A DNA stretch of 64,000 nucleotides from an uncultured Gammaproteobacteria bacterium. Its GTDB lineage: Bacteria > Pseudomonadota > Gammaproteobacteria > Steroidobacterales > Steroidobacteraceae. Within the stretch, counting starts at the first letter, position 1, and each line of letters begins with the position of its first letter. The translations under genes were made by a program, and so were the position numbers. The stretch covers positions 13,367 to 77,366 of the forward strand of contig CAWHCA010000003.1 in NCBI GenBank assembly GCA_963827615.1, in the 5' to 3' direction. The notes beneath the pieces are model-generated. The model was not told the origin of the DNA. It saw only the letters and a program-made list of their open reading frames with translations, and did no database searches. Positions 13,513-46,050 of the stretch are shown here, in pieces.

Positions 13513-13589
13513 CCGGAGTTCCGGGGTAAAGACGGGCCTGCAATGACGGGTCCGATACCGATCAGTACCGAGCTGTGCAGAGGTGTGAG

Positions 13590-19758: not shown

Positions 19759-19895
19759 CATTCAAGACGCTTGCGCTCGGTCTGGCCTTGAAGCGCCGCC
19801 TGCAAGTCGAGCCGGCCGAGCAATTCGACTCGCTTTAAGAATAAGAAAGACACCGCAAGGGTCCCTGGCCTTGCGCGCACGCAGGAGTGAACAAG

Positions 19896-29298: not shown

Positions 29299-29345
29299 AA
29301 AAATCATTGACTTATTAGTAAGTTACGGCAAATACTTAATGTGGA
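29299..29345 (+). promoter_or_regulatory. AT-rich island with TTGACT; candidate promoter for the biosynthetic locus
   Basis: AAAAAATCATTGACTTATTAGTAAGTTACGGCAAATACTTAATG stands out against GC-rich surroundings. TTGACT is followed about 17-19 nt later by AATACT/TACTTA. Confidence 0.3.
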
Positions 29346-29510
29346 TGCCGTGCCCAGGTTGCTGCCCGAGCGTTGCAGAAACTGTGATGCAGGTCCGCAG
29401 TGGGCAGTCCGATGACGACTAGCATTTGTGTCTCATGAGGGTCCGGCAAGGCAGCGATCCGCTTCGAGTCGGCCTGGGCTGGAAGGCCGGGCCCGAGGAA
29501 CCTGGCGAAC

Positions 29511-30725
29511 ATGCCGAAAATTGGGCCGCGGATCCTGCTGCTGGGAGGCGACGCCGACTACAACGTCGGTGACCGCGCCATCGTGTCGGCACTGAGTCAA
29601 TGCATCGTGTCGCACGACCCATCCGCCGAGGTCTCGATCGTCGCCAGTCAAGTCGCGGGCCCACCGATTCGCGGTGTTGCCCGGATGATCCCCCGTGGCA
29701 CGGCCGGAGTCGCCGGGTTGTGTCGGGCCGCCGCCGCCGCGGATCGCGTCCTCATTGCCGGCGGCGGACTGTTCCAGGACGACGACAGTCGCGCCAAGAT
29801 GCCCTATTGGGCGGCACGAATTTCCCTGCTGAAAAGCCTGAATCCAAGCATCGCTGGTCATTCGATCGGTGCGGGTCCGTTGCGACACGTCGAGAGCCGG
29901 GCGGCCGCAGGAATCGCCTGTGCTGCGTTGACGACGATTTCCGTGCGCGACCGTTTCGCGCAGGCGGCGCTGGCAGCCTGCACGTCCCGCTCGATCGACG
30001 TCGTACCCGATCCGGCATTCATGCTCGAGGCGGCGCCACGAGGGGACGCGACCGACCTGCTGCGCAGCCTCGATCTCGAACCCGGTCGACCCCTGATCGT
30101 CGTCGCGGCCAGGCACTGGTTTCACAGCCGCGGCGGTTTCATACCCAACGTCGTCAAGGCCAGGACCGGCATCGGTGTCGCGCGCGACGAGCAGCGATTC
30201 GAACGGCTGCTCGACGTGCTCGTGGACGGCCTGACGCACCTGGCCCGGCGTCTCGAGGCCGCGGTGCTGCTGCTGCCGAGCTACAACGTCGCGCACGAGG
30301 GGGACGATGTCGTGTGCGAAGCGCTGGCCCGGCGACTGCGCGACGTCACCGTCCGGATGGCGCGGATCGTCGATCCCCGGTTGTACAAGGCCGTACTGGG
30401 CCACGCAGCGCTGATCATTTCGTCGCGGATGCATCCGCTCATCCTCGGGGCCGGCATGGGCGTGCCACTGGTGGGCCTGTCCTACAACGACAAATTCCGT
30501 GGATTGTTCGATCAACTCGGCTTGGACACGAGCCTGCTGCCGCTCGACGACTTTCCCGCTCGATGGGGTGCGCGGGAATTGATCGCCGCCGCCGAAGCGG
30601 CGCTCGACGGACGGGACGACCTGCAGCATCGCGCCGAGTTGCTTGGAACTGCCGTACAGCGACGCACGCTCGAAGTCGCCTTTGCCGACCTGCGCGAGCG
30701 AACGCCGGAAGTGGTCGATGCGTGA
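29511..30725 (+). CDS. Polysaccharide pyruvyl transferase family protein
   Basis: 404 aa with N-terminal ILLLGGDADYNVGDRAI and GGGLFQDD motifs typical of CsaB/WcaK-type enzymes. Confidence 0.75.
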   Translation: MPKIGPRILLLGGDADYNVGDRAIVSALSQCIVSHDPSAEVSIVASQVAGPPIRGVARMIPRGTAGVAGLCRAAAAADRVLIAGGGLFQDDDSRAKMPYWAARISLLKSLNPSIAGHSIGAGPLRHVESRAAAGIACAALTTISVRDRFAQAALAACTSRSIDVVPDPAFMLEAAPRGDATDLLRSLDLEPGRPLIVVAARHWFHSRGGFIPNVVKARTGIGVARDEQRFERLLDVLVDGLTHLARRLEAAVLLLPSYNVAHEGDDVVCEALARRLRDVTVRMARIVDPRLYKAVLGHAALIISSRMHPLILGAGMGVPLVGLSYNDKFRGLFDQLGLDTSLLPLDDFPARWGARELIAAAEAALDGRDDLQHRAELLGTAVQRRTLEVAFADLRERTPEVVDA

Positions 30726-31938
30726 CGCGCTGCGTGTCATGAGCCCGGGCACACCGACTGCATCGTCGCAGCCTGCGGCGAGCATGCGACTCCAGCGCCT
30801 GCTGACCGACGCAGGTCGGCACGTCCCGTTGTATCGCCGCCTGTGGACAGAGTCGGGTATCGACGTCGATGAACTGCAGGTCGCCGGGGATTTCCCGCGA
30901 TTGCCGTGGCTCGACAAAGCGGCCCTGCGGTCTTGCCGTCCCGAGGACAGGATTCACGGCAAGCGCCGTGGCATTCACCTCGCGGAGGAGCTTTCGAGCG
31001 GCTCGAGCGGCGAGCCCCTGGCGGTCTTCAAGGACCGAGCTGCCCAGCTGCGGCGCCGCTGGGCATTCCTGCGTGCGCTGCTCGCATGTGGATACCGACC
31101 GGGACAGCGATGCCTGCTGCTGACGAGCCGGCGATCAGCAAAGTGGCCGACGGTCGCGCGCTGGTCCTACGCCAGCATCGGCGAGGACACGGCCACGCTC
31201 GCGTCCCGTCTCGATGCCCTGCAGCCGGACGTGCTGTACGGCCCGCTCTCGACACTGGAACTGCTGGCCGCGCAACGCACTCAGCGGACGCCGCGACCGG
31301 CTGGGCCGCGCCTCGTCATCTCGACGGCGGAGCAGTTGACGCGACAGCGACGCGCAACGCTCGAGCGGGGATTCGGCGCACCCGTCGCCGATTTCTACGG
31401 CCTGTCCGAGCTCGGCCTGGTCGCATACCGTACTCCAGGGAATCCGCGATTCACGCCGGCTCGGTCCAGCCTGATCCTTGAATTCTTTCCCATCGCAGGC
31501 GAGCCGTCGGTCGAGCGCCTGGTCGTCACCGACCTGGCCGAGCGCACGTCGCCGTGGATCCGTTACGACACCGGGGATCTCGTCAGGCGCGACCCGCAGC
31601 TTGCCGGTCGCCCGATCGTCGAACTCGCCGGTCGGTCGGTGGACTGCATCGTGCTGCCGGACGGCGGCCTGGTTTCTCCCTACCGCATCGACGTCCTGCT
31701 CGAGCAAGTGCCCGGCCTGAAGGCGTTCGAGGTCCTGCAGCATGCCGACCTGACCCTGGACGTGACGCTCGACATGGCGCCTGGCACCGGCGAGCAAGCC
31801 TGCTCGAACGTCCGTCGCGGACTCGAGTCCATCCTGGGCACCACCGCGGCGATACGGATACGGACAGGCGCGATCCATAGAGACCCGACGGGCACGAAGT
31901 TCCGCCCGATCCGGTCACTCGTCGGGAGCACGGCTTGA
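30718..31938 (+). CDS. CapK / phenylacetate-CoA-ligase-like adenylate-forming enzyme
   Basis: I chose the ATG at 30718, which overlaps the upstream stop (ATGCGTGA). It has the AMP-binding P-loop SSGSSGEP and PaaK/F390-synthetase-like organisation. Confidence 0.7.
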   Translation: MRDALRVMSPGTPTASSQPAASMRLQRLLTDAGRHVPLYRRLWTESGIDVDELQVAGDFPRLPWLDKAALRSCRPEDRIHGKRRGIHLAEELSSGSSGEPLAVFKDRAAQLRRRWAFLRALLACGYRPGQRCLLLTSRRSAKWPTVARWSYASIGEDTATLASRLDALQPDVLYGPLSTLELLAAQRTQRTPRPAGPRLVISTAEQLTRQRRATLERGFGAPVADFYGLSELGLVAYRTPGNPRFTPARSSLILEFFPIAGEPSVERLVVTDLAERTSPWIRYDTGDLVRRDPQLAGRPIVELAGRSVDCIVLPDGGLVSPYRIDVLLEQVPGLKAFEVLQHADLTLDVTLDMAPGTGEQACSNVRRGLESILGTTAAIRIRTGAIHRDPTGTKFRPIRSLVGSTA

Positions 31939-33104
31939 AGATCCTGTCCCTGACCTACGAGTACCCCCCGATCGGCGGCGGCGGCAGCGTTGTCGCAGCA
32001 GCGGTCAACGAGGAGCTGGTCCGGCTCGGTGACGAGGTGACCGTGCTGACCTCGGGGATGAAGGGGCTACCGGCCGAGGAAACGGTCGAAGGTGTGGCCG
32101 TGCACCGGACCGCCTGCATCCGGCGGCATCGTCATTACACGAGCACCGCCGAGTTGCTCACGACCCTCCTGCCCACGTACCGGCGCGGAGCGCAGTTGAT
32201 CCGCGCCATCAAGCCGGACGTCATTCATGCACACTTCATCCTGCCTTCAGGGCCGGTGGCTCGTGCACTGTCCGAGCGCTTCGACGTGCCGTATGTCCTG
32301 ACGGCGCACGGCTCCGACGTCCCGGGCTACAACCCGGACCGGTTCGGGCTGATGCACCGGATGCTCAAGCCCGCCTGGCGACAGATCGTCGAGGGCGCTT
32401 CGTCGGTGACCTCACCTTCGCGTTTCCTGGCCGGGTTGATGCGGGCGCAGGGTTGCGCGGTGCCGATTTCGATCGTGCCGAATGGCCACCGTCCGCATCC
32501 GGGCCTCGGGACCGTGCGGCGCAACCGGGTACTGGTCGTCGCGCGGATGTTCCCCCGCAAGGGCATCCAGCATTTCATCGATGCCGTCGCTGGCGTGGAA
32601 GGCGAATGGGAGTTCGTCATCGCCGGTGACGGCCCCTTCAGGGACCAGCTCGAGGCACAGGCGCGCAGCGTCGCACCGAACGTGCAATTCGTCGGCTTCG
32701 TCAACCGCGAGACCCTGCGGTCCCTGTACGAGTCTTCGCAGATCCTGGTGTTTCCATCGATCCAGGAAAACTTCCCGATGGTGCTGCTCGAGGCGATGGA
32801 CGCGGGCTGCGCCATCGTGACCACCAATGCCGAGGGTTGCGCGGAGGTGGTCGGCGACGCGGGTCTCGTCGTGCCCACGGGCGACCCGCAGGGCATTCGT
32901 GCGGCGCTCGACAAGCTCATGCATGAACCTGAACTCGTGCGTAACCTCGCTGGCCGCGCGCGCGCGCGCGCCGCGAGGCTGACCTGGCCCAACATCGTGG
33001 GACGGTACCGCGAGGTCCTGCAGGCGGCGATCTCGCAACGGTCGCCCACCACCACGCGCACGATAGAAGTGCCCACCGCATCGACGCCGCAAGCCCTGCG
33101 TTGA
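31935..33104 (+). CDS. Glycosyltransferase family 4 (GT-B, group 1)
   Basis: MKILSLTYEYPPIGGGGSVV at the N-terminus, plus C-terminal FPSIQENFPMVLLEAMDAGCAIV (E-x7-E region). TTG start overlapping the upstream stop. Confidence 0.85.
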   Translation: MKILSLTYEYPPIGGGGSVVAAAVNEELVRLGDEVTVLTSGMKGLPAEETVEGVAVHRTACIRRHRHYTSTAELLTTLLPTYRRGAQLIRAIKPDVIHAHFILPSGPVARALSERFDVPYVLTAHGSDVPGYNPDRFGLMHRMLKPAWRQIVEGASSVTSPSRFLAGLMRAQGCAVPISIVPNGHRPHPGLGTVRRNRVLVVARMFPRKGIQHFIDAVAGVEGEWEFVIAGDGPFRDQLEAQARSVAPNVQFVGFVNRETLRSLYESSQILVFPSIQENFPMVLLEAMDAGCAIVTTNAEGCAEVVGDAGLVVPTGDPQGIRAALDKLMHEPELVRNLAGRARARAARLTWPNIVGRYREVLQAAISQRSPTTTRTIEVPTASTPQALR

Positions 33105-33125
33105 CCGATCGCTCATCGCTTCTTG

Positions 33126-34088
33126 ATGCCATGGAGACATGTAAAGACGATCGCCTCACTGGCCGCGCCCATCGTGCTGCCGGTGCAACGCCTCGTTGGC
33201 AGACTGCCGGGGTCGGCTGATCCAGTCACGATGATCTGCGCCGGTGCGCCGTCGACCGCGGACTTCGTGGCCGGCGCACTGCTCGAAGTCGAGGAGCGAG
33301 TCGTCGTCGGCAGGCTCGCCAGTCCGCTCGAGTTGCGTGGCGCTGCATTCCGCAGGATGTGTTCGGATGCAGATCTCGTGGCGGCGGAAGTCCCGCGTGC
33401 CTGGCAGGTTTGCCTTCCGACAGGCGCTCAACTGCGCATGCCGGCCTGGGTATCGCAGGAACTGCTGGCGGCCGGAGCATCGCCGGTCACGCTGCCCGCG
33501 CCGATGCTCAAGGAAGTCAGGCGCCAGACCAGGCGCAATGCCTACGAACTTCGCTTTTCAACGGACGTGCGCGACGTCAGGCGCTTCTACGCCACTTTGT
33601 ATCGCCCGTACGTCACGGCACGTTTCGGCTCGGGCGCGGTCCTCGTGGACGAGACGCAGTTCCTCGCCGTCAGTCGAGGAATGACGCTGGCCATGCTGAT
33701 GGCCGCCGGGGAGTGGGTTGCCGGCATGTTGCTCCAGCAACGCGGCGAGACCCTGCACCTGGGATGGTTCGGCTCGACGACGGTGCCGCCACGGGCAGGC
33801 GCGAGCGAAGTCCTCGACGCGGGCAGCATCGCGTGGGGTGTCGCGAAAGGCGTCCGCCGCGTCGTGATGGGACATTCGCGGCCGAGCCTTGCTGACGGAG
33901 TCGTCCGCTACAAGAGTCGATTCGGCGCGAGCGTGCGGCCAACACGGTTCCCGCAACGAACCGTCGGGCTGTGGGTGCAGCGCTGGTCTCCCGCGCTCGT
34001 CGCGCGTCTCAATGCAGCAGCATTCGTCAGCTTTCGCGATGGCCTGACTTGCGTGTACGAGGCGCAGCCCGACGTCGCGGCAACTTGA
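33126..34088 (+). CDS. FemAB / Acetyltransf_6-like GNAT-fold protein
   Basis: The segment FYATLYRPYVTARFGSGAVLVDETQF parallels FYDEMYVPHLTNRFGSAAYIEPEWKV in the 36050 gene. LHLGWFG and RYKSRFGA motifs are present. Confidence 0.5.
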   Translation: MPWRHVKTIASLAAPIVLPVQRLVGRLPGSADPVTMICAGAPSTADFVAGALLEVEERVVVGRLASPLELRGAAFRRMCSDADLVAAEVPRAWQVCLPTGAQLRMPAWVSQELLAAGASPVTLPAPMLKEVRRQTRRNAYELRFSTDVRDVRRFYATLYRPYVTARFGSGAVLVDETQFLAVSRGMTLAMLMAAGEWVAGMLLQQRGETLHLGWFGSTTVPPRAGASEVLDAGSIAWGVAKGVRRVVMGHSRPSLADGVVRYKSRFGASVRPTRFPQRTVGLWVQRWSPALVARLNAAAFVSFRDGLTCVYEAQPDVAAT

Positions 34089-34103
34089 GGCCGCTGCGAC
34101 TCG

Positions 34104-35412
34104 TCAGCCAGCGTCGTCCACCCGGTCGGTGCGGGGCTTGGTCGGCAGACGGATGCCGAATCGCGACAGCAGCCCTTTCAATCGCGGCTTGACGACGAAG
34201 AAATACAGGTACGCGACGACGAGTGCCGGTTGCCGCTGGTACAGGTGCACCTCGACGGTGTCCCTGGCGTGCGTCGCCCAGCGGACCTTGTTCTTGAGGA
34301 AGCCGCCGAGAAAGTCGTATTCCTCCAGGCCGCTCCGGAAGCATTCCTCGAGCTCGAGCGACTCGAGGAACGTGCCGGGCGAGCAGCCCGAATAGGCAGC
34401 GTCATGAGCAATGTGCAGGGAATAGAACCGACGCTCGTGCACAAGGCCGAAGGTCGCCGCCACCAGGTGGCCATCGACGCGCAGGCAGCGGAAGACGAAC
34501 TGTCCGCTGTCGCCGAAGGCGTGGATCAAGTGCCGGTAGAATCGCAGGTGTTCCACGCTCTGCGACACGCCCACTCCTTTCCTGGCTTTCCAGCCGCGGC
34601 TTTCGAGCACTTCGTACTCGCCGAAGAGTTGCTGCAGCCGCTGCTCGTCGCCCGGCGCAACTCGTGTACTCGAGTTGCCCTGCGCCCTGCAGTTTCCTGC
34701 GGGCACTCTTCAGGTTCTTGCGGAACTTCTGCGACTTCGTCGCCAGCAGTTGCTCCCAGGTGCCAGCGAAGGTCAGGTACGGACAATGCGAACTCGGGAC
34801 CCTGCCGTGCAGCATCCCGTGCCTGGATAGCGTGGTGCAGAACGTCTCCAGCGCAGGGTCCGCAGCATCCTGTTCATGAAACCAGATGACGTCCCACTGG
34901 TCGCGTAGTGCCAGCAGAGCGTGGGCGGTGGCTTCAGCGCAGTCGCGTCGATCGCGGCTGAACAGGAAGGCCGGCCGGTCGACCTGCCACGGTGCCCCGA
35001 GGAAGGTCAGCTGTCGGCGCACCTTGCCGTGCATCCGTAGCAGCGAGACCTGGAACGGTGCAATGCCGATCATCTCGTCGCCGTCGTGGATGCAGACGAT
35101 CATGAGCTTGAGGTCGACCGCGAAGCTGCGCACCCAGGCCGCCTGGTAGCGGTGCGTCTGGAACACGGTCAGTCCCGGCACGGCCTGCTCGATGCTCTGC
35201 CAGTGTTCCTGGAGACCGAGGAGACCGTCTTCATCGGTGACCAGGCTCGTTCGAAGCGCCTTGCCGGACGACGTACGGACAGGTTCACTCGCGTGCGAAG
35301 CATCGACGGGTCGCCTGCGATCCGTGCAGCGCCCTGCAGCGAGCGGCTCCCACACGACCAACGGCGCAGCCTGGCCCGCTCGCGTGGTGTCGTCGCCGAG
35401 TTCGGCAGCCAA
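34104..35412 (-). pseudogene. CelD/BcsL-like GNAT (Acetyltransf_6) gene split by a frameshift near 34660-34670
   Basis: Two overlapping ORFs (34402-35412 and 34104-34706) together align collinearly with the intact paralogue at 43439-44605: ...KSQKFRKNLKSARRKLQGAGQLEY / RVAPGDEQRLQQLFGEYEVLESRGWKARKG...EEYDFLGG. The junction is TAC-A-CGA, with one extra nucleotide. Confidence 0.6.
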
Positions 35413-35842
35413 CGCGAAGCCGAGCTTGCGGAAGACCGGCCTGGTGTCGCTTCCACATCTTTCCGGTCTCCCGGATCGCGTGGGCGACGATCGGCAGGCC
35501 GGGATACTCGAGGCGGGCCTCGCGTGAAAACGCAGTGAGCAGCTTGATCAAGTGACGCTGGTAGCCTGGCAGGACCGCCATGTCCGCCACGTAGACATTG
35601 TCCCCGATCGCCTGTCCCGGAATCTCCGCACCGTCGTCCAGGTGCGCCAGGACATATCCCACCAGCTCATCGCCGGCGAACAGGCCGAGGTTCAGCGACC
35701 CGTAGTGATCGTCTTCATACCGCAGGCGGGCTTCGATCAGGTGTTGCGGTTCTTGATATTCGCGGCTGTATACCCGACGCTCCACGGCGACGACGGCCGC
35801 GCGGTCCATCGCGGAAAGCCGCCTGACTTCTAGGTATCGCAT
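35285..35842 (-). CDS. Small GNAT N-acetyltransferase, C-terminus apparently frameshifted near 35440-35455
   Basis: ATG at 35842 (MRYLEVRRLSAMDRAAVVAVERRVY...VYVADMAVLPGYQRHLIKLL). After ...AIRETGKMWKR the called frame turns Arg-rich. The adjacent frame reads RPVFRKLGFALAAELGDD, a typical GNAT C-terminal strand, and runs on into the CelD-like ORF. Confidence 0.55.
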   Translation of the reverse strand: MRYLEVRRLSAMDRAAVVAVERRVYSREYQEPQHLIEARLRYEDDHYGSLNLGLFAGDELVGYVLAHLDDGAEIPGQAIGDNVYVADMAVLPGYQRHLIKLLTAFSREARLEYPGLPIVAHAIRETGKMWKRHQAGLPQARLRVGCRTRRRHHASGPGCAVGRVGAARCRALHGSQATRRCFARE

Positions 35843-36049
35843 CGTGGCAGGAATGGGGGCGTGCGCCGCATGGAAAGGGATTCTGACATCCGCGTGAAGT
35901 CGTGAACTGTGCGTCCGTTCACAACCGCCCGGCCCATGGCCTGTGAGCATGTCGCTTCACACGGAGCCACTTTGCATTCCCAAGGACCCAGACAGGTTCG
36001 TGCCGCGGGCGTGACGCTGCCCGAACCCCGTTCGCCGATCCGCCCCGCC

Positions 36050-37249
36050 ATGATCGGGCAGCCGGGCGGGTTCGCGCGCGTGCGTGCCGGGACCGAGCGG
36101 CTCTACTGGCAGTGGCAGGAATACCGGGAATCGGCTGCGACCCGCGAGGCCAGCGCGCTGCTGGTCTCCGGTCCCGAAAAGCATTCCGGAGCACCCCTCC
36201 GGTCGCTTTATTTTGGATCGGGCAACAACCTGTCGTACGTGCTCGGACTTCTCTACGACGAGTACCGCATCGAAGAGGAGCATCGACACCTGCATGCCTG
36301 GCAGGTGAAGAACTGGGTGGAGCGTTATCGCGACAAGGTCGATTTCGTGAGTGCGGATCTGCCCTGGCCCTATCACCATTTGCTGGCGGATCGCGGACTC
36401 CTGGAGACCCCCGCCTGGGTGGACCAGAAACTGTCGCTGCCGGAACGCTGGGAGGATGTGCTGGCGCAATTGCGCGGTTCGGCGAGGGGCGAGGACTTGC
36501 GCAAGATCCGCAAGCACGGCCTCCAGTACCGGATCGTCCGCGACGAGGAAGCGATTCGGCGGTTCTATGACGAGATGTACGTGCCGCACCTGACCAACCG
36601 ATTCGGCAGCGCGGCGTACATCGAGCCGGAGTGGAAAGTCCATTATTGCGCCGAGAACGGCGCGTTGATGGAGATCCTGCGCGACGGGGAGATCGTGGCG
36701 GGCCAGGTCCTGTTCGGGGACCGGCAGGACATGCAGTTGCTCTGGGCGGGAACGTCCCGCGGAGAGTTCGGGCAGCAGTCGCAAGGCGTGTTCCCGGCCC
36801 TGTACTACTTCGGCATCCTGTATGCCTTCGAACTCGGCTGTCACGCGGCGGATTACTGTGGCAGCAGGCCTCTGCTGTCGGACGGCATCTTCCAGCTGAA
36901 GCGACGCTGGGGCGGGCACGTCTACGACGGCTGGAGCCGGGACTCCCTTTTCTTCCTGCCCATCAACCTGGGGCAGGCCAATCTCGGTTTCCTGACCCGG
37001 CACCCGCTGATCGCCCGGTGCCGCCAAGGTCTCGTCGGCAAGGTCTTCCTCGGCACCGAACCCATCCAACCCGACGACGTCGCGCGTGCCGAGCTGGTGT
37101 ATGCGACCGCCGGTCTGCAGGCGATCAGGTTGTACTCGTTGCAGCGGCCGGGTTCGGCAGCACTTGATGCAGCGCGCGCAACACCGGGGATCGAACTCGT
37201 GGACCTGAGCTGCGAGGCGCAGCCCGCGGCGGCCTACTGCCGGTGCTGA
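36050..37249 (+). CDS. FemAB / Acetyltransf_6-like GNAT-fold protein, paralogue of 33126-34088
   Basis: I chose the ATG at 36050. It shares motifs with 33126-34088 (see that entry) and also has LLWAGTS and FQLKRRWGG. Confidence 0.5.
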   Translation: MIGQPGGFARVRAGTERLYWQWQEYRESAATREASALLVSGPEKHSGAPLRSLYFGSGNNLSYVLGLLYDEYRIEEEHRHLHAWQVKNWVERYRDKVDFVSADLPWPYHHLLADRGLLETPAWVDQKLSLPERWEDVLAQLRGSARGEDLRKIRKHGLQYRIVRDEEAIRRFYDEMYVPHLTNRFGSAAYIEPEWKVHYCAENGALMEILRDGEIVAGQVLFGDRQDMQLLWAGTSRGEFGQQSQGVFPALYYFGILYAFELGCHAADYCGSRPLLSDGIFQLKRRWGGHVYDGWSRDSLFFLPINLGQANLGFLTRHPLIARCRQGLVGKVFLGTEPIQPDDVARAELVYATAGLQAIRLYSLQRPGSAALDAARATPGIELVDLSCEAQPAAAYCRC

Positions 37250-37293
37250 CGTTGCGCGCAGATTCATTGCAGGCTGGAGGAGGGCAACGCCCG

Positions 37294-37992
37294 ATGGAGA
37301 TCCGCATAGAGCCCGGCAGGTTTGCCTTGTCGCTGCTGCTGATAGCGATCGCGCTGCTCATCGCCCACGTCACCGGAGCGGTCGCGAGTCACGTCTTCCA
37401 CCACCAGCAGGTATTCGGCCTGGTCGATTCCTTCGACATGAACGTCGAGAACAACGTGCCGACGTTTTTTTCCGCGTTCATACTCGTGACGAGCGCGGTC
37501 CTGCTGACCGTCATCACCAGCCAGTCGACCGCCGATCGCTATGCGGGCCACTGGAAATGGCTGGTCATCATCTTCACTTTCATGGCGATCGACGAGGATG
37601 CCGCGCTGCATGAACTGCTGATCGAGCCGGTTCGTGACCTGCTGCCAGTGACGGGGCCGTTGTACTTCGCGTGGGTGATCCCGTACGGCCTGGCGGTGCT
37701 GGCCATCGGCGTGCTGTACCTGAGGTTCGTGTGGTCGCTGACCGCGCGCACGCGCGGGTTGTTCATCGCTGCCGGCAGCCTCTATCTCGCCGGCGCGCTC
37801 GGCTTCGAGTCCATCGGCGGCTGGTACTTTTCCCGGCACGGGGAAATGGAAGACCTGCGGTACTCGCTGCTGGTCGCGACCGAGGAATTCCTCGAGATGT
37901 CCGGGATCATCCTCTTCATCTACGCCTTGCTGGACTACCTGCGCGACCGGCTCGCGGGCGACCCCCTGCGGATCTTCATGGCCAGGTCCTGA
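37294..37992 (+). CDS. Polytopic membrane protein of unknown function
   Basis: About 6 hydrophobic segments. I chose the ATG at 37294 (MEIRIEPGRFALSLLLIAIALLIAHV). Confidence 0.5.
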   Translation: MEIRIEPGRFALSLLLIAIALLIAHVTGAVASHVFHHQQVFGLVDSFDMNVENNVPTFFSAFILVTSAVLLTVITSQSTADRYAGHWKWLVIIFTFMAIDEDAALHELLIEPVRDLLPVTGPLYFAWVIPYGLAVLAIGVLYLRFVWSLTARTRGLFIAAGSLYLAGALGFESIGGWYFSRHGEMEDLRYSLLVATEEFLEMSGIILFIYALLDYLRDRLAGDPLRIFMARS

Positions 37993-37995
37993 CGG

Positions 37996-39780
37996 TCAGG
38001 TTTCCTGCAGCAGGGCGCGGTGCCGGCTGCCGGGAGCCGTGAGTTCGTCGTAGCTGCCTTGCGCCGCGATGCGCCCGCCTTCCAGCACGACGACCTCGTC
38101 GCAGAACGTCGCAACAGATGGCTTGTGCGACACGAAGACGATCGTCCTGCCCCCGAGCGCCCGCAGTGAAGCCAGGATCCTGGCCTCCGTGGCGAGATCC
38201 AGTTCGTTGGTCGCCTCGTCCATGATCAACACCGCCGGGTCGTGATAGAGCGCCCTGGCGATGCCGATTCTCTGCCGCTGGCCTCCGCTAAGCCTGGCGC
38301 CGCGCTCGCCGACGACGGTCAGATACCCGGCCTCGAGTTCGTTGACGACGAAGTCATGCAACTCCGCAATGCGCGCGGCCCGCTCGAGCCTGGGGTAGTC
38401 GATGTCGCCGGGTTCGATGCCCAGCGCGATGTTGCTGGCGATCGTGTCGTCGATCAGGTAGATGACCTGTGGCACGTACCCGATGTTGTCCTGCCAGGCA
38501 CGCACGTTGCCTGGCGTCAACAGCGTGCCATCGACAGTGATCCCGCCGGCCGACGGCGGCAGGAGTCCGAGCAGCAGGTCCACGGTCGTCGACTTGCCGG
38601 CGCCCGTAGGCCCCGCCAGGCACACGGACCGACCCACAGGAATCGCCAGGCTCAACCCGGGCAAGGTGTCCTGACGGCTGTCCGGATAGCGGAAGGAGAC
38701 GTTTTCCAGCCTGATCGAGTTCCGCGGAACCATCGCGTCACCCGTCGCGACTGCCGGCTCCGTGCAGGGATCGGAGTAGTCCTGCCACAGTCCGTCCAGC
38801 GCCGCAGTCTTGTAACGGATGGCCTCGATACCGTCGAAGAGTCCCTGCAGCGCCGGGATGAGCCGGTACGCGGCATAGGCGAGCATCGCGATTACAGGCA
38901 GTATCTCGCCCGCATACCCGGTATCGCCGATCAGGTAGACCGTCGCGAAAACGAGTCCGCCGAAAGCGACCAGTTCGAGACTCTGGGCCGGGACGATGTC
39001 CAGGGTGCTGTAGGTGATGGCATTCCTGGACGAGCGCAGCAGCGGCCTCGCGAAACGCTCCACGAAATGCGCCTCGCGCCCGAGCACCTTGATGGCCTTG
39101 GCTGCGCCGATCGCCTCGTGGGCATTCTTGTAGATCTCGGTATTCAGGGTCGCGAACTCCGCTCCGAGCCGCGTGACCCTGGGCATGATCAACAGGTAGA
39201 TCAACAGGTACGCCACCGCCAGCACGACCAGCGTGACGGTCATGACCCACGGCTGGATCACCACGAGCAGCACGACGATGAACAGCGTCGTGACGGCATC
39301 CGAGAATACGTTGATGCCCGCCATCAGCGTGCCGATGGCCACCCGGTCGATCTCGGCCACCACCATCTTGACGAGTTCCGACGAGTTCCGCTGCACGAGG
39401 AAAAGGTAGGGACGCGCCAGGTACCGGCTCATGAGCCGGCGCGCCAGGTTGTATTCGCCGAGGTGGCAGACCCGGAAAGTCAGCCACGCGTTGATACCTA
39501 CGAGGAGATTGGTCGCCAGCAGCATGCTGAATGCGGTCAGGCCGAGGAATTTCAGAAAGGCATTCGTGCTGGTAAACCCGAGGGCGCCGTAGGCCCAGGC
39601 CAGGTAATGATTCTCCGTCACGAGGGTCGGGTCGGTGACGACGGCGATGAACGGCATGATGGATGCGACCCCGACGGCCTGCACCAGCCCGCTGACCGTT
39701 GTGCTCAGCAGCAGCAGCAGGAGCTGGCGCTTCTCTCCGGCCGAGAAGAAAGACAGGAGTTTTCGCCAGTCGTCGATCAT
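37996..39780 (-). CDS. ABC exporter, fused permease-ATPase (MsbA/type I exporter-like)
   Basis: I chose the ATG at 39780 (MIDDWRKLLSFF...). It has an N-terminal 6-TM domain, Walker A GPTGAGKST, the signature LSGGQRQR and Walker B VLIMDEAT. Confidence 0.9.
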   Translation of the reverse strand: MIDDWRKLLSFFSAGEKRQLLLLLLSTTVSGLVQAVGVASIMPFIAVVTDPTLVTENHYLAWAYGALGFTSTNAFLKFLGLTAFSMLLATNLLVGINAWLTFRVCHLGEYNLARRLMSRYLARPYLFLVQRNSSELVKMVVAEIDRVAIGTLMAGINVFSDAVTTLFIVVLLVVIQPWVMTVTLVVLAVAYLLIYLLIMPRVTRLGAEFATLNTEIYKNAHEAIGAAKAIKVLGREAHFVERFARPLLRSSRNAITYSTLDIVPAQSLELVAFGGLVFATVYLIGDTGYAGEILPVIAMLAYAAYRLIPALQGLFDGIEAIRYKTAALDGLWQDYSDPCTEPAVATGDAMVPRNSIRLENVSFRYPDSRQDTLPGLSLAIPVGRSVCLAGPTGAGKSTTVDLLLGLLPPSAGGITVDGTLLTPGNVRAWQDNIGYVPQVIYLIDDTIASNIALGIEPGDIDYPRLERAARIAELHDFVVNELEAGYLTVVGERGARLSGGQRQRIGIARALYHDPAVLIMDEATNELDLATEARILASLRALGGRTIVFVSHKPSVATFCDEVVVLEGGRIAAQGSYDELTAPGSRHRALLQET

Positions 39781-40090
39781 TCGTTCGCTGCTCTTCGCCG
39801 TTTGCCGACCAGGGCCCGATGCATCGGAGGCATCCTGGAAAGGGTAGCGTCCGGATGCACCAGGCATGCGTGACGCGATACCAGAATATCCTACCGGGTT
39901 GTGGCCGCACGGACCGTGCGGCATCCCGCCGCGAACGCAGTGCGCCAGTCATCCCGCAGCGATCCGGCAATGGCGGACGGGAGAGAGGAGAGAAGGGCGC
40001 GGCCTCTTCAATAATGTGAACTGCATTGCCTCGCGATTTTCCGCGACGACCTAGCATGCGTGACGTCCCACAGGAGGTTCCGACGTCACC

Positions 40091-40909
40091 ATGGACCAGG
40101 CAGCGCACACCTCGGCCGCCGAACTGCGTTTTTCCGACGCACGTTCCGCACGCAAATGGGCCGACATGTACGACTCCGACACGGACTCGCTGCAGGAAGC
40201 GAGTTTCCGGGCCCGGTGCGATGCGGCCGTGAACTACGTGCTCCGCGTCCTGCCGGTGGATGGCCGCGTGCTCGATCTTGGGTGCGGCTCCGCGCCTGTT
40301 CTCAGCCGGCTCAGGCAGCAGGGCGCTTCGTGCACGGGGCTCGAGTACTCCGAGGACATGCTGCGGCACGCCAAGGCGCGGTTGCAGTCGATGCAACTGG
40401 ATGTCGGTGACCTGCACCGCGGCGACTGCCGCGAGACTCCGTTCGCAGCGGCATCATTCGATGTCGTCGTTTGTCTCGGCGTGATCAGCTACGTCGAGGA
40501 CTACGCCGTCGTGCTCAGCGAGATCAAGCGCATCCTGAAGCCTGATGGTTACGCGCTCGTCAGCTTTCGCAACCGGTTCAATCCGATCCTCTGGGACCCG
40601 GCCGTGGGACTGAAGACCCTCGCCCGGGCCGCCACCGGTCGCGTGCGCCCAGAGCCGTACAAGATCGGGCGTTTCATGGACTTCCGGGAGTTCCGGCGCA
40701 AGATGGACGAGGCCGGCTTCGAGTATCGCCATTTCGTCGGCATCGGCCTAGGGCCGGTCAAGTTCAACCGGCGCGCGCTGCTGGCCGAGCGGGTCTCGAT
40801 CAGGCTCAGCGATTCCCTGACGGCCGTCCTGCGTCGCCTGGGCTGGCAGGCGCCGATACGCTGGCTCGCCGACGTCAGCCTGTGGGTCTACAGCAAACCG
40901 GCGGCATAG
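40091..40909 (+). CDS. Class I SAM-dependent methyltransferase
   Basis: Motif I VLDLGCGSA, with post-I and motif II/III spacing (FDVVVCLGVISYV, LKPDGYALVSF). Confidence 0.85.
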   Translation: MDQAAHTSAAELRFSDARSARKWADMYDSDTDSLQEASFRARCDAAVNYVLRVLPVDGRVLDLGCGSAPVLSRLRQQGASCTGLEYSEDMLRHAKARLQSMQLDVGDLHRGDCRETPFAAASFDVVVCLGVISYVEDYAVVLSEIKRILKPDGYALVSFRNRFNPILWDPAVGLKTLARAATGRVRPEPYKIGRFMDFREFRRKMDEAGFEYRHFVGIGLGPVKFNRRALLAERVSIRLSDSLTAVLRRLGWQAPIRWLADVSLWVYSKPAA

Positions 40910-40946
40910 GCCGGAGCGCCGACTGCCTTTTCCCTGTCGAGTGACG

Positions 40947-42233
40947 CTATTGCGCGGTGCGGGGCTGCTGCACCGTCCGCAGACCGCGGGAGATTCGCGA
41001 CGAGACGTGCTCGCGAACCACGTCGCGGTAATGGTGCCACGCGGGACGCCAGTCGTCCCGGGCGTACGCGGCCTCGATCCTGGGGCCGTGCAAGGAACGC
41101 AACCACTCAAAATACGATGGGCCGCCTTTGCCACCCAATTGCTTGACCGCCATGAGGTCTGCGTAGAGCCGGTACCAGGTCACGCCGTCCCGCCAGGTGG
41201 TGACCGGTTCGACGCGATCGCCGATGAGGTCGCGATAGGCGATGTAGGGAATGTCGACACCGCAGGCCGGCGCGAGCCCGATGGTATTCACCGGGCGCGG
41301 ATTGATCTCGATGAGCTTGTATTCGCCCGTCGCCGCGTCGAACTTGTACTCGACGCCGCAGATTCCCGAGAAGCCGGTGCCCTGCAGCAACCGCAGTGAC
41401 TGGCGGACGACCACGTCGTCGTGGCAGGACACCGTCATCGTGCAATAGCCGAAGTCGACCGGCAGCTGGCGTATCTTGCGCCGCACGCAATAGGCAAGCG
41501 GGACTCCGTCATCGTTAAGGTAGGCCAGGAAGGTGAACAGCTGTTCGTCCCGGCCGCCGATGACCTCCTGCAGCATGACGTCCCTGGAGTCGTCGCCCAT
41601 CGACAACCAGGCGCCGCGCAGTTCGTCCGGCGTGCGTACCAGGAGCGCCTTGCGGCCCTGCGAGACCCGTTGCATCGAGGCGAGGCGCCACGTGTGGGCG
41701 ACCAGTGGCTTGATGATGTACGGATAGTTGTGGATCGTCGCAGCCAGTCGTTCGATGTCGCTGCGACTCTCGGGGAAGTACGTCTCCGGAATCGGAATCC
41801 CGAGCCGCTCGGCCTGCTCGTACTGTCGTCGCTTGTTGACGACGTGCTGCATCACCTCGGGGCGTGCGGCGCAGACTCGGAAGGCGTGTTCCAGGACGGG
41901 CCGGTGGGCACCGAGAAATTCCGCGCAATCGTCGCTCGCGGGGATCAGGACGCGTTTGCCGGAATACCGGGACGCGAGTTGCAGCAGGTACTCCACCAGC
42001 GCAGGCCCCGACTGGTACATGTCGGGACACAGGGCGACCTCGCTGCAGTACTTTGAATGCAGGCTGTGATCGAGCCGGTTCGGGTGAACACGAACGACCG
42101 GCACGCCCTGGCGGCCGAGCGAGCGCGTCACCGCCAGCGCGATCAGGCTCGTGCTGCTGGTACGCCGGTTGGGGTCCGGTTCATGGCTGATGACGAATGC
42201 GGTGCCAGGAGTTCTCTGCTCCGGGCGAGTCAT
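40947..42233 (-). CDS. ATP-grasp domain carboxylate-amine ligase-like protein
   Basis: 428 aa with ATP-grasp landmarks (YPYIIKPL, VMLQEVIGG, GVEYKFDAATGEYKLIEINPRP). Confidence 0.8.
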   Translation of the reverse strand: MTRPEQRTPGTAFVISHEPDPNRRTSSTSLIALAVTRSLGRQGVPVVRVHPNRLDHSLHSKYCSEVALCPDMYQSGPALVEYLLQLASRYSGKRVLIPASDDCAEFLGAHRPVLEHAFRVCAARPEVMQHVVNKRRQYEQAERLGIPIPETYFPESRSDIERLAATIHNYPYIIKPLVAHTWRLASMQRVSQGRKALLVRTPDELRGAWLSMGDDSRDVMLQEVIGGRDEQLFTFLAYLNDDGVPLAYCVRRKIRQLPVDFGYCTMTVSCHDDVVVRQSLRLLQGTGFSGICGVEYKFDAATGEYKLIEINPRPVNTIGLAPACGVDIPYIAYRDLIGDRVEPVTTWRDGVTWYRLYADLMAVKQLGGKGGPSYFEWLRSLHGPRIEAAYARDDWRPAWHHYRDVVREHVSSRISRGLRTVQQPRTAQ

Positions 42234-43423
42234 GGGACGAGTACCCCGGCCGATACGAAGACGTTGCCGTCCATGATGCGGCGCGCGGTGCGGTCGATCC
42301 GTATCGAGTGAATGGTGGGCCGTCCGGAGTCGAAGCCATGGACGATCTCGGACGCGATCACGCCGGAGGGGTGACCGATCCTGAACACGCCGCGTCCGTC
42401 CGTCAGCGGCCGGCGCAAGAGGTCAGCCACGACGGTCCCGGGGATGCTGGCTGCCGCCGTCAGGCACATCGCACCTGTCACCGCGAATGCCTTGTGCACC
42501 CGCTCCGGATTGACGATGCGGGCGACGAGATCGAGCGCACGGCGCGCACCCGTGGCGTCCGTCGGCGACACGTCCTGCGGTGCCGAGCCGACGATCGCGA
42601 TCTTCAATCGCGCCGCCCGCCGCGTGCCGCGTGACGTGCGATCCGCATCCTGCAGGTAACGCTCGGCGATCGACTCGCGGATCTCCTCGATTTCCTGTCG
42701 CAGGCCCGGCACCAACTCGAGTTCGCACGGGCTCTCAGACCCGCTGAGCCCCCAGGTGTGCGCGGGAATGATCGCGTACAGGTTGCCGCAGTCGACGAGC
42801 GAAAACTGCACGACGGTGCCGCGGGTCGTGTGCATCTCGTCCTGGGGAGATCCGGACGGGAGGAGGTGACCGGTGTCGCCGCCGGCCGGGTCGATGAATT
42901 CGAGACTGACCTGTGCATCGGGACTCGGGACGACCGGCCCTCGTGCATCGCGGTTGCCGGGCGGCAGGCCGCTGGTGGTCGAAACGGTTGCGACGATCTG
43001 CTTGCCGTTGTTGGTGCAATGGATTCGAACGCGGGCCGGGCCGTCCGCAACGCGCACGAGCCGCTCGTGAATCGCGTAGAGGGCCACGGCTGCGGCGGTG
43101 TTGCCGCAACTCACCGCGTAGTTAACGGTTGCCGAGGCGATGCCGACCTGGCCGAAGCAGTAGTCGACGTCGACGTCGGGTCGCGTGGCTCGTCCGACGA
43201 TCGCGACCTTGCTGGTCAGTGGATCGGCACCGCCGAGTCCGTCGATCTGGCGTGGATCCGGACTGCCGAATGCCGCGAGGATCAGCTGGTCCCGCGATCG
43301 TGGATCCGCCGGCAGGTCGGCTGCCGCGAAGACGATGGCCTTGCTGGTTCCGCCGCGCATGATCGCGCAGTGCACCGAGTGGATCGTGGATTTGTCCGTG
43401 ATGGCGGACAGTAAGGCGGACAT
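42230..43423 (-). CDS. PrpF-family (2-methylaconitate isomerase / 4-oxalomesaconate tautomerase-like) protein
   Basis: N-terminal CAIMRGGTSKAIVF, then DGLGGADPLTSKVAIV and SCGNTAAAV, typical of the PrpF/DapF-like fold. Its stop overlaps the ATP-grasp start. Confidence 0.8.
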   Translation of the reverse strand: MSALLSAITDKSTIHSVHCAIMRGGTSKAIVFAAADLPADPRSRDQLILAAFGSPDPRQIDGLGGADPLTSKVAIVGRATRPDVDVDYCFGQVGIASATVNYAVSCGNTAAAVALYAIHERLVRVADGPARVRIHCTNNGKQIVATVSTTSGLPPGNRDARGPVVPSPDAQVSLEFIDPAGGDTGHLLPSGSPQDEMHTTRGTVVQFSLVDCGNLYAIIPAHTWGLSGSESPCELELVPGLRQEIEEIRESIAERYLQDADRTSRGTRRAARLKIAIVGSAPQDVSPTDATGARRALDLVARIVNPERVHKAFAVTGAMCLTAAASIPGTVVADLLRRPLTDGRGVFRIGHPSGVIASEIVHGFDSGRPTIHSIRIDRTARRIMDGNVFVSAGVLVP

Positions 43424-43438
43424 CTGGCGGCGCCTGCC

Positions 43439-44605
43439 TTATATGACCTGGCTGTCCGTCACGGCTGGACCCGGCTTTCGGGCGGGGACCTCCGGGCTCC
43501 TCGCCTTCGAACTGGCGGGACGAAGGTAGGCACCCCGCGGCCAGACTCCCATCCGGATCGGGATGCTCCTGAGTCCAGGCGTGAAAGCCAGCAGGTCCAT
43601 CCCGGTGCGCTCGACCGCGAGCCAGCGCCTCTTGTGCTCGGAATGGCCGCCGAGAAAATCGTATTCGGTCAGGCCCTGCGCGATGCAGTCCTGGATGACC
43701 CACGTGCGCAACGCGTTGCCGACGTGCGGCGAGTAGTCCGGGTCGAAACCCTCCTGCAGCTGCAGGAACGCGCGCCCATAGACATATCCGATCTGGACGG
43801 CCTTGGGTTCCGATCCGTCGAACAGGGTATAGACTGCGAGCCAGCCGCGCGCCAGCGCCTCCGGCGCGAAGCATTCGTAGAATTCCCTCTCCTTGACGTT
43901 GCGGTCGAAGACGCCGTCCTGGCCCACGGCCCTCCAGCGCTTGCCGTGCAACCGGAACAGTGCGTCGAGCGCCGGACCCAGTTCGTCATGAGTCGTCACC
44001 TTACGCACCTCGACGCCGGGCTTCGACAGGATCTTTTTCGTGTTGCGCCGGATCTGCTGCCGCCGGTTGGTCGACATGCTCGCGAGGAACGCGTGGTAGT
44101 CCGCGGGCAATGTCACCGTCGAGAAGTCCCTGGGGCGGCTGCGGATGCCGAGCCGTCCCGCGCGCAGCGCCCGGACCATCGGCTCGTGTGCGCCCGACCA
44201 GGATTCGAGGTTGGGGATCCAGAGCAGGTCCCATTCCGACCGCAATGCGTGCATTGCGCGGACGATCACCTCGCAGACGCGGTCTTCGTCCGACGTGCGC
44301 GCGAGCCAGGTCTGGTATTCGGCGCCGGAGTCGACGTCGCCGATCATTCGCAGCATGCGGTACGGCAGGATGTCCAGCAGCCGATAGTTGGCGACATAGA
44401 ACGGCGCGACACCGAGCAGCTCGCCGCCGGTCCCGCGCACGCAGATGATTCTCAGGTCGGTGACCGAGCGCTGCACCCGCAGCCAGCAGTCCAGCCACTC
44501 CCAGGTCATGAACAGCTGGTCAGCCTTGCTGTCGGCGAGCAGGGTATTCCATTGCCCGCGCAACCCATGCCATTGCGCCAGGCTGCGAATGACCTCGTAC
44601 TTCAT
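43439..44605 (-). CDS. CelD/BcsL-like GNAT (Acetyltransf_6) protein, intact paralogue
   Basis: 388 aa (...STNRRQQIRRNTKKILSKPGVEVRKV...LFRLHGKRW...TEYDFLGG). First gene of the minus-strand operon 44605-40947. Confidence 0.65.
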   Translation of the reverse strand: MKYEVIRSLAQWHGLRGQWNTLLADSKADQLFMTWEWLDCWLRVQRSVTDLRIICVRGTGGELLGVAPFYVANYRLLDILPYRMLRMIGDVDSGAEYQTWLARTSDEDRVCEVIVRAMHALRSEWDLLWIPNLESWSGAHEPMVRALRAGRLGIRSRPRDFSTVTLPADYHAFLASMSTNRRQQIRRNTKKILSKPGVEVRKVTTHDELGPALDALFRLHGKRWRAVGQDGVFDRNVKEREFYECFAPEALARGWLAVYTLFDGSEPKAVQIGYVYGRAFLQLQEGFDPDYSPHVGNALRTWVIQDCIAQGLTEYDFLGGHSEHKRRWLAVERTGMDLLAFTPGLRSIPIRMGVWPRGAYLRPASSKARSPEVPARKPGPAVTDSQVI

Positions 44606-44803
44606 CCAGCTGTCCTCGGCCGGGATGCCCGACCGTCAGAGTGTCCGCGATAGCGGCACCGTATGTGGTCACGGCCGCCCGTTCCGTGATTCGCATCACA
44701 GGTTGTCGGTTCGCGGTGAGCCGCCCAGGGAAGCGCCACGGGCGCAGGTTCGCCGCGCTGGCCCGTAGCAGGGCCAGTTGCTGCAGCTAAACCATTGATT
44801 GGA

Positions 44804-44825
44804 TGGCGCTCCCAGAGGGATTCGA
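44804..44825. repeat. 22-nt direct copy of the 3' end of tRNA-Glu (att-like)
   Basis: TGGCGCTCCCAGAGGGATTCGA is identical to 45884-45905, the tRNA 3' acceptor/T-arm. The upstream flanks are also similar (CCATTGATT / CCATGATTT). Confidence 0.75.
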
Positions 44826-45864: not shown

Positions 45865-45883
45865 CCGAAGTCCATGATTTAAG

Positions 45884-45959
45884 TGGCGCTCCCAGAGGGA
45901 TTCGAACCCTCGTACCAGCCTTGAGAGGGCTGTGTCCTGGGCCTCTAGACGATGGGAGC
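45884..45959 (-). tRNA. tRNA-Glu (anticodon CUC), 76 nt with encoded CCA
   Basis: Folded by hand. The acceptor stem is GCTCCCA/TGGGAGC and the D-arm is GTCTAGAGGCCCAGGAC, identical to the E. coli tRNA-Glu D-arm. The anticodon stem is CAGCC/GGCTG with loop CTCTCAA (anticodon CTC). The T-arm is GAGGG-TTCGAAT-CCCTC, with discriminator G and CCA. Confidence 0.9.
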
Positions 45960-46050
45960 GTGTGGCGGACCGGTTTGGACTAACCGGGTCCTGAGGAAGC
46001 CGCGTATTATACCCGGCTGTTTTCCACGGTCCAGCAGAAGCTCCCTGCCC

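Follow-up and report, generated by a model that had tools for sequence, protein, structure and literature searches.

We analyzed a 64,000-nucleotide stretch of DNA (the window; positions 13,367 to 77,366 of contig CAWHCA010000003.1) from an uncultured gammaproteobacterium of the family Steroidobacteraceae, and addressed a 15-kb region at 29511-44605 of this window that encodes glycan enzymes, tandem-GNAT transferases, an ATP-grasp ligase, and an ATP-binding cassette (ABC) exporter. The initial annotation had read the region as a single biosynthetic locus. Instead, the 15 kb consists of two separable, uncharacterized modules lying side by side near a tRNA gene, and not of one pathway: a lineage-conserved block of seven to eight genes (module B, 29511-39924) and a widespread, portable cassette of three to four genes (module A, 40091-44605). 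We propose, with moderate confidence, that the region is a composite accessory island in which two independent modules build or tailor a surface glycoconjugate.

Genes in the window (GC, ~66%) were called by the GC content at third codon positions (GC3) and then checked against Pfam and NCBIfam. Approximately 50 open reading frames (ORFs) were supported by GC3, 40 of which were scanned against Pfam, and related loci (labelled L001-L040) were compared by tblastn of the window proteins. All genes proposed in the initial annotation exist at or near the positions assigned to them, in GC3-supported frames, and Pfam or the Protein Data Bank (PDB) upheld the families given to the pyruvyl transferase, the CapK-like ligase, the family 4 glycosyltransferase (GT4), the exporter, the methyltransferase, the ATP-grasp ligase, the PrpF-like isomerase, and CelD2 (table 1).

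The separation of the two modules was evident from the related loci. Module B is arranged as pyruvyl transferase-ligase-GT4-Fem1, GNAT-CelD, Fem2-transmembrane (TM) protein, and ABC exporter, and this order and orientation were kept in ~12 Steroidobacteraceae-like loci from metagenome-assembled genomes (MAGs), at protein identities of 54-96%. Module B occurred without module A in L020-L023, L025, and L030-L040; L020-L023 and L025 are close relatives that carry it at the same chromosomal site, and the copy in L037 is without GT4 and Fem1. The two modules lay next to each other in the window and in none but its closest relatives (L003/L019 and L004/L024), and in one MAG they lay on different contigs (L005 vs. 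L023). In L001, module A stands beside the start of the ABC gene, where the contig ends; in L008, CelD2-PrpF-ATP-grasp stands beside tRNA-Glu and pcnB, and the contig ends ahead of the expected module B. Inheritance of module B within the family appears to have been vertical, although different sublineages carry it at two chromosomal sites.

The interval between module B and tRNA-Glu(CUC) forms a variable slot that houses module A; the tRNA gene is located next to pcnB in all relatives checked (L008, L020, L021, L022, and L024). Module A fills this slot in L024 and in the window, which adds a remnant of an IS3-family insertion sequence that was absent from the equivalent site in L008 and L020; the slot holds a 328-aa membrane protein in L020 and L021 and several membrane-protein ORFs in L023. 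The slot of L022 (15488-17813) contains ORFs of 518 and 252 aa with helix-turn-helix (HTH)-like and IstB-like N-terminal sequence, read here, from size and N-terminal sequence only, as a putative IS21-type element. In L001 (1-7300), whose ATP-grasp gene is 100% identical to that of the window, the place of the IS3 remnant beside CelD2 is taken by an integrase of the phage type, an HTH_17 protein, a MamI-type restriction enzyme, and an N6 methyltransferase, and no tRNA was detected on this fragment. GC and GC3 of the island were no different from those of the flanks, giving no compositional signal of horizontal transfer; thus, horizontal insertion of module A is supported by its presence or absence in the slot and not by composition. 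The initial annotation had suggested horizontal acquisition of the whole locus, a suggestion that stands for module A at tRNA-Glu but neither extends to module B nor finds a signal in GC or GC3. The IS3 remnant and tRNA-Glu, at which it had drawn one boundary, were confirmed by Pfam, ORF fragments, and ARAGORN. The AT-rich island upstream of module B, described as promoter-like, does carry the sole sigma-70-like match (at 29307-29336) in 29000-46000, but 1.9 such matches are expected by chance, and a promoter and terminator scan of the same interval gave counts no higher than chance. On the left, at window positions 26189-29298, genes for an LssY_C protein and a phospholipase D (PLD)/cardiolipin-synthase-like protein are intact in the window and in L023 and are fragments or absent in L020, L022, and L024; thus, the left flank is also variable.

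Module A is found far beyond this family. In loci from many phyla with an ATP-grasp protein at least 39% identical, PrpF adjoins the ATP-grasp gene in 31 of 32 cases; the methyltransferase stands beside the pair in 18 of these 32 loci, and an Acetyltransf_6-like gene is near it in 21. The hosts include Dechloromonas hankyongensis, Azonexus, Azovibrio, Haliea, Marinimicrobium, and Cellvibrio, together with members of the Woeseiaceae, Acidiferrobacteraceae, Myxococcota, and Gemmatimonadales. According to Pfam, the neighbors of the cassette elsewhere are Wzy_C, Wzx, GT4, sulfotransferases, UDP-sugar dehydrogenases, a polysaccharide deacetylase with DUF3473, an EpsL-like barrel, and WecG, and module A is usually found inside extracellular polysaccharide (EPS) loci of the Wzx/Wzy or PEP-CTERM type. 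In D. hankyongensis XY25 (L014, 678-9972), the genes immediately upstream of PrpF-ATP-grasp encode a two-module nonribosomal peptide synthetase (NRPS; A-T-C-A-T), a TubC_N/thioesterase protein, and two methyltransferases, and a WbqC-like gene lies downstream; this arrangement hints that the acid or amine partner of the cassette can be NRPS-derived.

Distant copies of module B are likewise set among sugar genes. Those in L030, L033, L034, and L040 abut phosphomannomutase, a DegT-type aminotransferase, ManC, CysNC, and CysD, and the copy in L030 also abuts an AMP-ligase, an acyl carrier protein, a pyridoxal phosphate-dependent decarboxylase, and a sulfotransferase. This is a setting of polysaccharide precursors, with the capacity for amino sugars and sulfation. 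A distant analog, the compact cluster of the cultured Benzoatithermus flavus (L027), combines a Wzx-like flippase and an ATP-grasp protein with a GT4 of 47% identity, a pyruvyl transferase of 44%, and a Fem-like protein scoring above the Acetyltransf_6 threshold (33 bits). Since Wzx holds the role of the ABC exporter in this cluster, we argue for a lipid-linked glycan as substrate.

Within module B, stop/start overlaps couple the pyruvyl transferase, ligase, and GT4 genes, and Fem2 with the TM protein, in an operon-like manner. The ligase ORF opens at TTG 30643, and its ATG at 30715 overlaps the stop of the pyruvyl transferase; the GT4 start overlaps the ligase stop by 4 nt. The pyruvyl transferase scored 105 bits against the CsaB equivalog (TIGR03609; cut-off 213) and 25 against WcaK (cut-off 727). 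The ligase matched the PaaK structure 2y27 over its full length (E 3e-16, residues 15-382) but reached only 47 bits against TIGR02155 PaaK (cut-off 646), and its AMP-binding match was weak. No NCBIfam equivalog was found for GT4, whose best score was that of TuaC (103 bits vs. a cut-off of 550); BshA and MshA of thiol biosynthesis were rejected, as their scores were far under the NCBIfam cut-offs. The exporter was likewise below every NCBIfam cut-off (PglK, 270 vs. 1000; MsbA, 229 vs. 602; HepA, 224), and it shares only the architecture of type I exporters with the PglK and MsbA flippases. The AlphaFold2 model of the TM protein has ~7 helices (predicted local distance difference test [pLDDT] score, 88), and Foldseek gave no significant fold for it (best E 0.19, to rhodopsins and G-protein-coupled receptors). 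Its family has the invariant acidic and histidine residues D101, E102, H107, E108, E173, E198, E199, and E202. The TM protein was not found in module B of L032, L033, and L037, and homologs of 42-45% identity are isolated in Nitrosococcus watsonii and Trichocoleus (L028 and L029). A role as an MprF-like membrane partner is not supported, as there is no fold match and the distant homologs are isolated.

Two further genes of module B, Fem1 and Fem2, had been described as FemAB-like paralogs. In the hhalign comparison, Fem1 matched the Fem2 family with a probability of 99.6% (E 5.6e-25, 282 columns), which marks them as clear paralogs at the level of sequence profiles. Their likeness to FemAB, judged from profiles and a model of Fem2, holds only at the level of the superfamily and fold (Fem/MprF tandem-GNAT). 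Fem1 matched nothing in Pfam or NCBIfam, Fem2 scored 19 bits against Acetyltransf_6 (PF13480), below the 22-bit gathering cut-off, and PF02388 was not matched by any of the window proteins; CelD2 and GNAT-CelD passed the family threshold. We gave the profile and structural evidence precedence over these failed thresholds. The Fem2 family profile matched that of CelD2/Acetyltransf_6 (95%, E 2.4e-8), and the AlphaFold2 model of Fem2 (pLDDT 91) found in the PDB, as its top 26 Foldseek matches, exclusively aminoacyl-tRNA-dependent transferases (E 6e-12 to 1e-6), including Sbb17/Sba18 (6e-12), FemX (1e-10), the MprF/aminoacyl-phosphatidylglycerol synthase domains (3e-9 to 1e-7), and FemA, at sequence identities of 11-18% and TM-scores of 0.3-0.5. 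With 2,626 representative clusters at E <= 1e-3, the Fem1/Fem2 family is a large one; in a sample of 51 members, 26 matched Acetyltransf_6 and 5 matched FemAB at E <= 0.01, and in the collection searched, nearly all close homologs were without a precomputed Pfam domain or an informative name. The Fem2 alignments contain an invariant lysine (K284) within a K-R-R-W-G motif, and this lysine is near-invariant in the CelD2-type alignment (K325). It recalls Lys305, the catalytic residue of FemX (PMC12945691), and may be its counterpart. BspF, an Acetyltransf_6-like protein, carries the name of crotonyl transferase in NCBIfam; thus, acyl-CoA is a candidate donor alongside aminoacyl-tRNA.

The initial annotation had counted five genes of the FemAB/CelD/GNAT type, but there are four. 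Its "small GNAT" and "frameshifted CelD" correspond to one ORF in L020-L024, of ~565-600 aa in relatives, and the equivalent in L030 is a called gene of 580 aa with both domains. In the window, this GNAT-CelD gene is interrupted by two window-specific insertions of a single base each, a C at ~34651 and a G at ~35439, which four relatives lack. A third window-specific indel was found by comparison with L008, L020, and L021, namely a 2-nt insertion at ~47393, in the 3' end of pcnB (ORF 45952-47721). It lengthens the PcnB frame to 589 aa, into the expected downstream folK region. Since the housekeeping gene pcnB also has a window-specific indel, an assembly error is plausible for GNAT-CelD, and we considered it at least as likely as true pseudogenization.

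In module A, the PrpF stop overlaps the ATP-grasp start by 4 nt. Among PDB structures, the PrpF-like protein matched 3-methylitaconate isomerase (3g7k, 242 bits) and oxalomesaconate (OMA) isomerase (6p3j, 191 bits); its equivalog scores in NCBIfam were 283 for OMA tautomerase and 190 for PrpF, both against a cut-off of 440. The SK and CGN motifs, presumably catalytic, are visible in its sequence. For the ATP-grasp protein, no close structure was present in the PDB, with generic matches only at E >= 9e-4; some of its 342 database homologs have been auto-named "D-aspartate ligase" by JGI, a name without support from the PDB or NCBIfam. CelD2 matched nothing among the PDB sequences. A system of the DVU_1553 ligase and DVU_1556 methyltransferase was considered and rejected (46 and 70 bits vs. 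cut-offs of 300 and 155), and the corresponding genes lie in separate modules.

Three classes of amide- or acyl-forming enzymes together with an ABC exporter are indeed present, as initially described. The analysis shows the gene families, the fold of Fem2, the modularity, the synteny, and the co-occurrence, whereas the substrates, donors, order of steps, and final product given below are inferred. In module B, GT4 would add a sugar to a lipid-linked acceptor at the cytoplasmic face, the CsaB/WcaK-type enzyme would attach a pyruvate ketal, and Fem1, Fem2, and the GNAT-CelD fusion would N- or O-acylate, or aminoacylate, the product, probably on an amino sugar. The donor would be an acid activated by the PaaK-like ligase as a CoA thioester, or an aminoacyl-tRNA, and the fused exporter of the PglK/MsbA type would flip the product in place of the Wzx of L027. 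In module A, which would have landed as a cassette in the variable slot between module B and tRNA-Glu, the PrpF-like isomerase would supply a particular isomer of an unsaturated di- or tricarboxylate, the ATP-grasp ligase would form an amide between a carboxylate and an amine, either on the glycan or for it, and the methyltransferase and CelD2 may modify the substituent further. A bolder version of this scheme, which we regard as rather unlikely, would have all four Fem-type tandem-GNAT proteins use aminoacyl-tRNA to place short peptide or aminoacyl decorations on a lipid-linked pyruvylated sugar of a Gram-negative bacterium, and PrpF-ATP-grasp add a novel amide-linked unsaturated di- or tricarboxylate to EPS, jointly giving a new class of tRNA-dependent peptide-glycan hybrid polymer of the cell surface.

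Several observations weigh against glycoconjugate tailoring. None of the 13 island genes reached an NCBIfam equivalog cut-off, and the 40 ORFs of the window scanned against Pfam yielded no initiating phosphoglycosyl transferase, no sugar-nucleotide gene, no polymerase, and no gene for outer-membrane export. The GNAT-CelD gene carries its two frameshifts in the window, the best structural neighbors of Fem2 include natural-product enzymes and have low TM-scores (0.37-0.51), and in L015 and L016 the Acetyltransf_6-PrpF-ATP-grasp trio is isolated among unrelated metabolic genes, an arrangement that also fits a self-contained small-molecule function.

The alternative of a secreted small molecule as the product of either or both modules, an acylated or aminoacylated amino sugar or a short nonribosomal peptide conjugate whose bonds are formed by the Fem-type, ATP-grasp, and PaaK-like enzymes and which the ABC protein exports, draws on these isolated trios, on the NRPS, thioesterase, and methyltransferase genes of Dechloromonas, and on the lack of glycan polymerization and outer-membrane export genes in the scanned ORFs. 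It also draws on the top Fem2 matches, Sbb17 and Sba18, which depend on aminoacyl-tRNA and were crystallized with the amino sugar streptothrisamine; their relative Orf11 glycylates streptothrisamine (PMC12945691). However, PF04230 pyruvyl transferases and GT4 are typical of polysaccharide assembly, and L027 couples the same core to a Wzx-type flippase, a handler of lipid-linked glycans. Both modules sit repeatedly within or beside EPS and sugar-nucleotide genes in other genomes, and we therefore favored the tailoring of a polysaccharide or glycoconjugate and considered the free small molecule unlikely. Of the two product classes proposed initially, a decorated glycan or glycolipid is thus the better reading, and a free nonribosomal small molecule is less favored in view of these contexts.

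Remodeling of membrane lipids by module B, in which GT4 would make a glycolipid, the Fem-type enzymes would aminoacylate as MprF does, the TM protein would assist, and the exporter would flip the lipid to the outer leaflet in the manner of MsbA, appeared doubtful. The MprF/aminoacyl-phosphatidylglycerol synthase domains are among the Fem2 matches, the exporter is akin to MsbA, which flips lipids, GT4 weakly matches glycolipid and glucosaminyl-phosphatidylglycerol synthases, and the PLD/cardiolipin-synthase-like gene lies just upstream of module B. However, the PLD and LssY genes are lost or decayed in L020, L022, and L024, which keep module B; the TM protein is dispensable (L032, L033, and L037) and elsewhere stands alone, unlinked to Fem genes; distant copies of module B lie beside genes for GDP-mannose, an aminotransferase, and 3'-phosphoadenosine-5'-phosphosulfate; and every GT4 match is far under its cut-off. 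Finally, we gave little chance to a nonworking region, that is, a decaying variable island of unrelated accessory genes at a tRNA integration hot spot: although GNAT-CelD is frameshifted, the IS3 orfB is broken, the slot in relatives holds a putative IS21 element, an integrase, and restriction-modification genes, and relatives show decay of the neighboring LssY and PLD genes, the remaining genes are all intact with high GC3, the pcnB indel specific to the window suggests assembly error over decay, and the order of module B is kept down to ~55% identity and module A is conserved across phyla, both of which point to purifying selection, so that a nonfunctional remnant is unlikely given conservation over such large distances.

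The proposed glycoconjugate tailoring by the island is related to, and departs from, several known systems. Neither module was found described in full-text literature searches for these gene combinations, in which the pantaphos paper retrieved concerns an unrelated cluster, and NCBIfam gave no equivalog-level match either, so that no described pathway was found for the combination. All parts belong to known kinds of enzymes, and taken together they follow the general scheme of glycoconjugate tailoring. The closest studied analog of the CelD-type genes, by resemblance, is HfsK of the Caulobacter holdfast, a FemX-like tandem-GNAT protein that is genetically coupled to EPS systems and has been proposed to acylate EPS or its precursors, in this case those of the holdfast (PMC5362036). 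HfsK and the CelD (BcsL)-type proteins of the island are alike in being cytoplasmic, FemX-like double-GNAT proteins encoded with polysaccharide genes, whereas the island has four such genes, and Fem1 and Fem2 form a divergent subfamily below the Pfam thresholds. FemABX, MprF, and Orf11 (Sba18 and Sbb17) share the tandem-GNAT fold and come closest in structure to the Fem2 model, but the island context is one of Gram-negative glycan genes rather than of peptidoglycan, phosphatidylglycerol, or antibiotic pathways. PglK and Wzk, which flip complete lipid-linked oligosaccharides in Campylobacter and Helicobacter, are likewise half-transporters with fused transmembrane and nucleotide-binding domains (TMD-NBD), encoded with glycosyltransferases and without Wzx/Wzy. 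The island exporter differs in its score, far under the PglK cut-off and similar to those for the MsbA, HepA, and type I secretion families, and no oligosaccharyltransferase or ligase is near it. The PrpF family, comprising Mii, GalD, and the 2-methylaconitate isomerase PrpF, is matched over its full length with Mii as the closest structure, whereas the island gene is coupled to ATP-grasp in glycan loci and not to propionate, gallate, or nicotinate catabolism.

Both modules sit in other genomes among the genes of Wzx/Wzy and XrtA/PEP-CTERM EPS loci, but the core genes of such loci were not found in the 40 scanned ORFs of the window. No Wzx, Wzy, Wza/Wzc, or initiating phosphoglycosyl transferase was detected among them, which agrees with the initial statement that the locus is not a standard EPS or O-antigen cluster; an exosortase, a PEP-CTERM gene, EpsL, and the deacetylase and FemAB-like pair associated with such loci were not seen there either. 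By Pfam and NCBIfam, the window proteins included no ABC2 permease, KpsE/D, or Wza, and the exporter is a fused half-transporter, unlike the separate permease and ATPase of the Wzm/Wzt or KpsMT pathway; none matched a PEP-CTERM FemAB-type model in NCBIfam.

Table 1. Features of the two modules and their surroundings (positions in the window).
Feature	Position	Strand	Evidence or remark
Left flank of the island: LptF/G, TIR-TPR protein, Nramp-like transporter, LssY_C protein, PLD-like protein			
AT-rich intergenic island	29296..29345	+	Sigma-70-like TTGACT-18-AATACT at 29307-29336; upstream of module B
Polysaccharide pyruvyl transferase, CsaB/WcaK-like (module B)	29511..30725	+	PF04230 71.6 bits (cut-off 25.3)
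PaaK/CapK-like adenylate-forming ligase (module B)	30715..31938	+	PDB PaaK 2y27 and SSGSSGEP motif
GT4 glycosyltransferase (module B)	31935..33104	+	Glycos_transf_1 126 bits, Glyco_trans_4_4 92 bits
Fem1, divergent tandem-GNAT, Fem/CelD superfamily (module B)	33123..34088	+	hhalign vs. Fem2 family
GNAT-Acetyltransf_6 (CelD-like) fusion (module B)	34104..35842	-	Acetyltransf_6 81 bits on C-terminal piece; two +1 insertions
Fem2, tandem-GNAT Fem/MprF-like transferase (module B)	36050..37249	+	AlphaFold2/Foldseek and hhalign
Polytopic membrane (TM) protein (module B)	37291..37992	+	No Pfam match; optional member of module B, overlaps Fem2 stop
Fused TMD-NBD ABC exporter, PglK/MsbA/HepA-like (module B)	37996..39924	-	ABC_tran 92 bits, ABC_membrane 43 bits
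Class I S-adenosylmethionine-dependent methyltransferase (module A)	40091..40909	+	Methyltransf_11 85.6 bits
ATP-grasp carboxylate-amine ligase (module A)	40947..42233	-	ATPgrasp_Ter 33.5 bits
PrpF-family isomerase (module A)	42230..43423	-	PF04303 287 bits (cut-off 27)
CelD2, Acetyltransf_6 tandem-GNAT (module A)	43439..44605	-	PF13480 93.6 bits (cut-off 22)
IS3-family remnant	44696..45805	-	orfA intact at 45536-45805 (HTH_Tnp_1 89 bits); orfB in three frames, rve-like fragments
tRNA-Glu(CUC)	45884..45959	-	ARAGORN; conserved anchor of the variable slot
Right flank of the island: pcnB, deoxynucleoside kinase, panB, panC			

The genes flanking the island are housekeeping genes or unrelated to it. 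Farther to the left, at window positions 17351-19636 (+), a 761-aa protein combines a TIR domain (TIR_2, ThsB_TIR) at its N terminus with long arrays of TPR (FxSxx_TPR, 202 bits in NCBIfam) and may be a defense or NAD-signaling protein; it is followed by two ORFs of lower GC, 0.59-0.62 (19887-21380 and 21454-23007). At 12073-15626, two neighboring proteins have six DUF5666 repeats each, the second of which also carries PKD domains and, at its C terminus, a cytochrome c domain of the cbb3 type, and a DUF6502 protein is encoded ahead of the pair.

Nonsugar decorations set the charge, adhesion, and antigenicity of bacterial surface polymers, as well as their recognition by phages and the immune system, and to our knowledge, the enzymes installing most such decorations are not known. 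The region defines three uncharacterized units: the PrpF and ATP-grasp cassette, the module B block of the Steroidobacteraceae, and the Fem1/Fem2 family. The cassette, with or without the methyltransferase and the Acetyltransf_6 protein, occurs in the EPS loci of many bacteria from activated sludge, soil, and marine environments, with cultivable carriers that include Dechloromonas, Cellvibrio, Marinimicrobium, and Haliea, and the module B block combines up to three Fem-like transferases with a putative ABC flippase of its own. If the Fem-like enzymes do use aminoacyl-tRNA, the reach of tRNA-dependent aminoacylation would widen beyond peptidoglycan, lipids, and antibiotics to include the glycans of Gram-negative bacteria.

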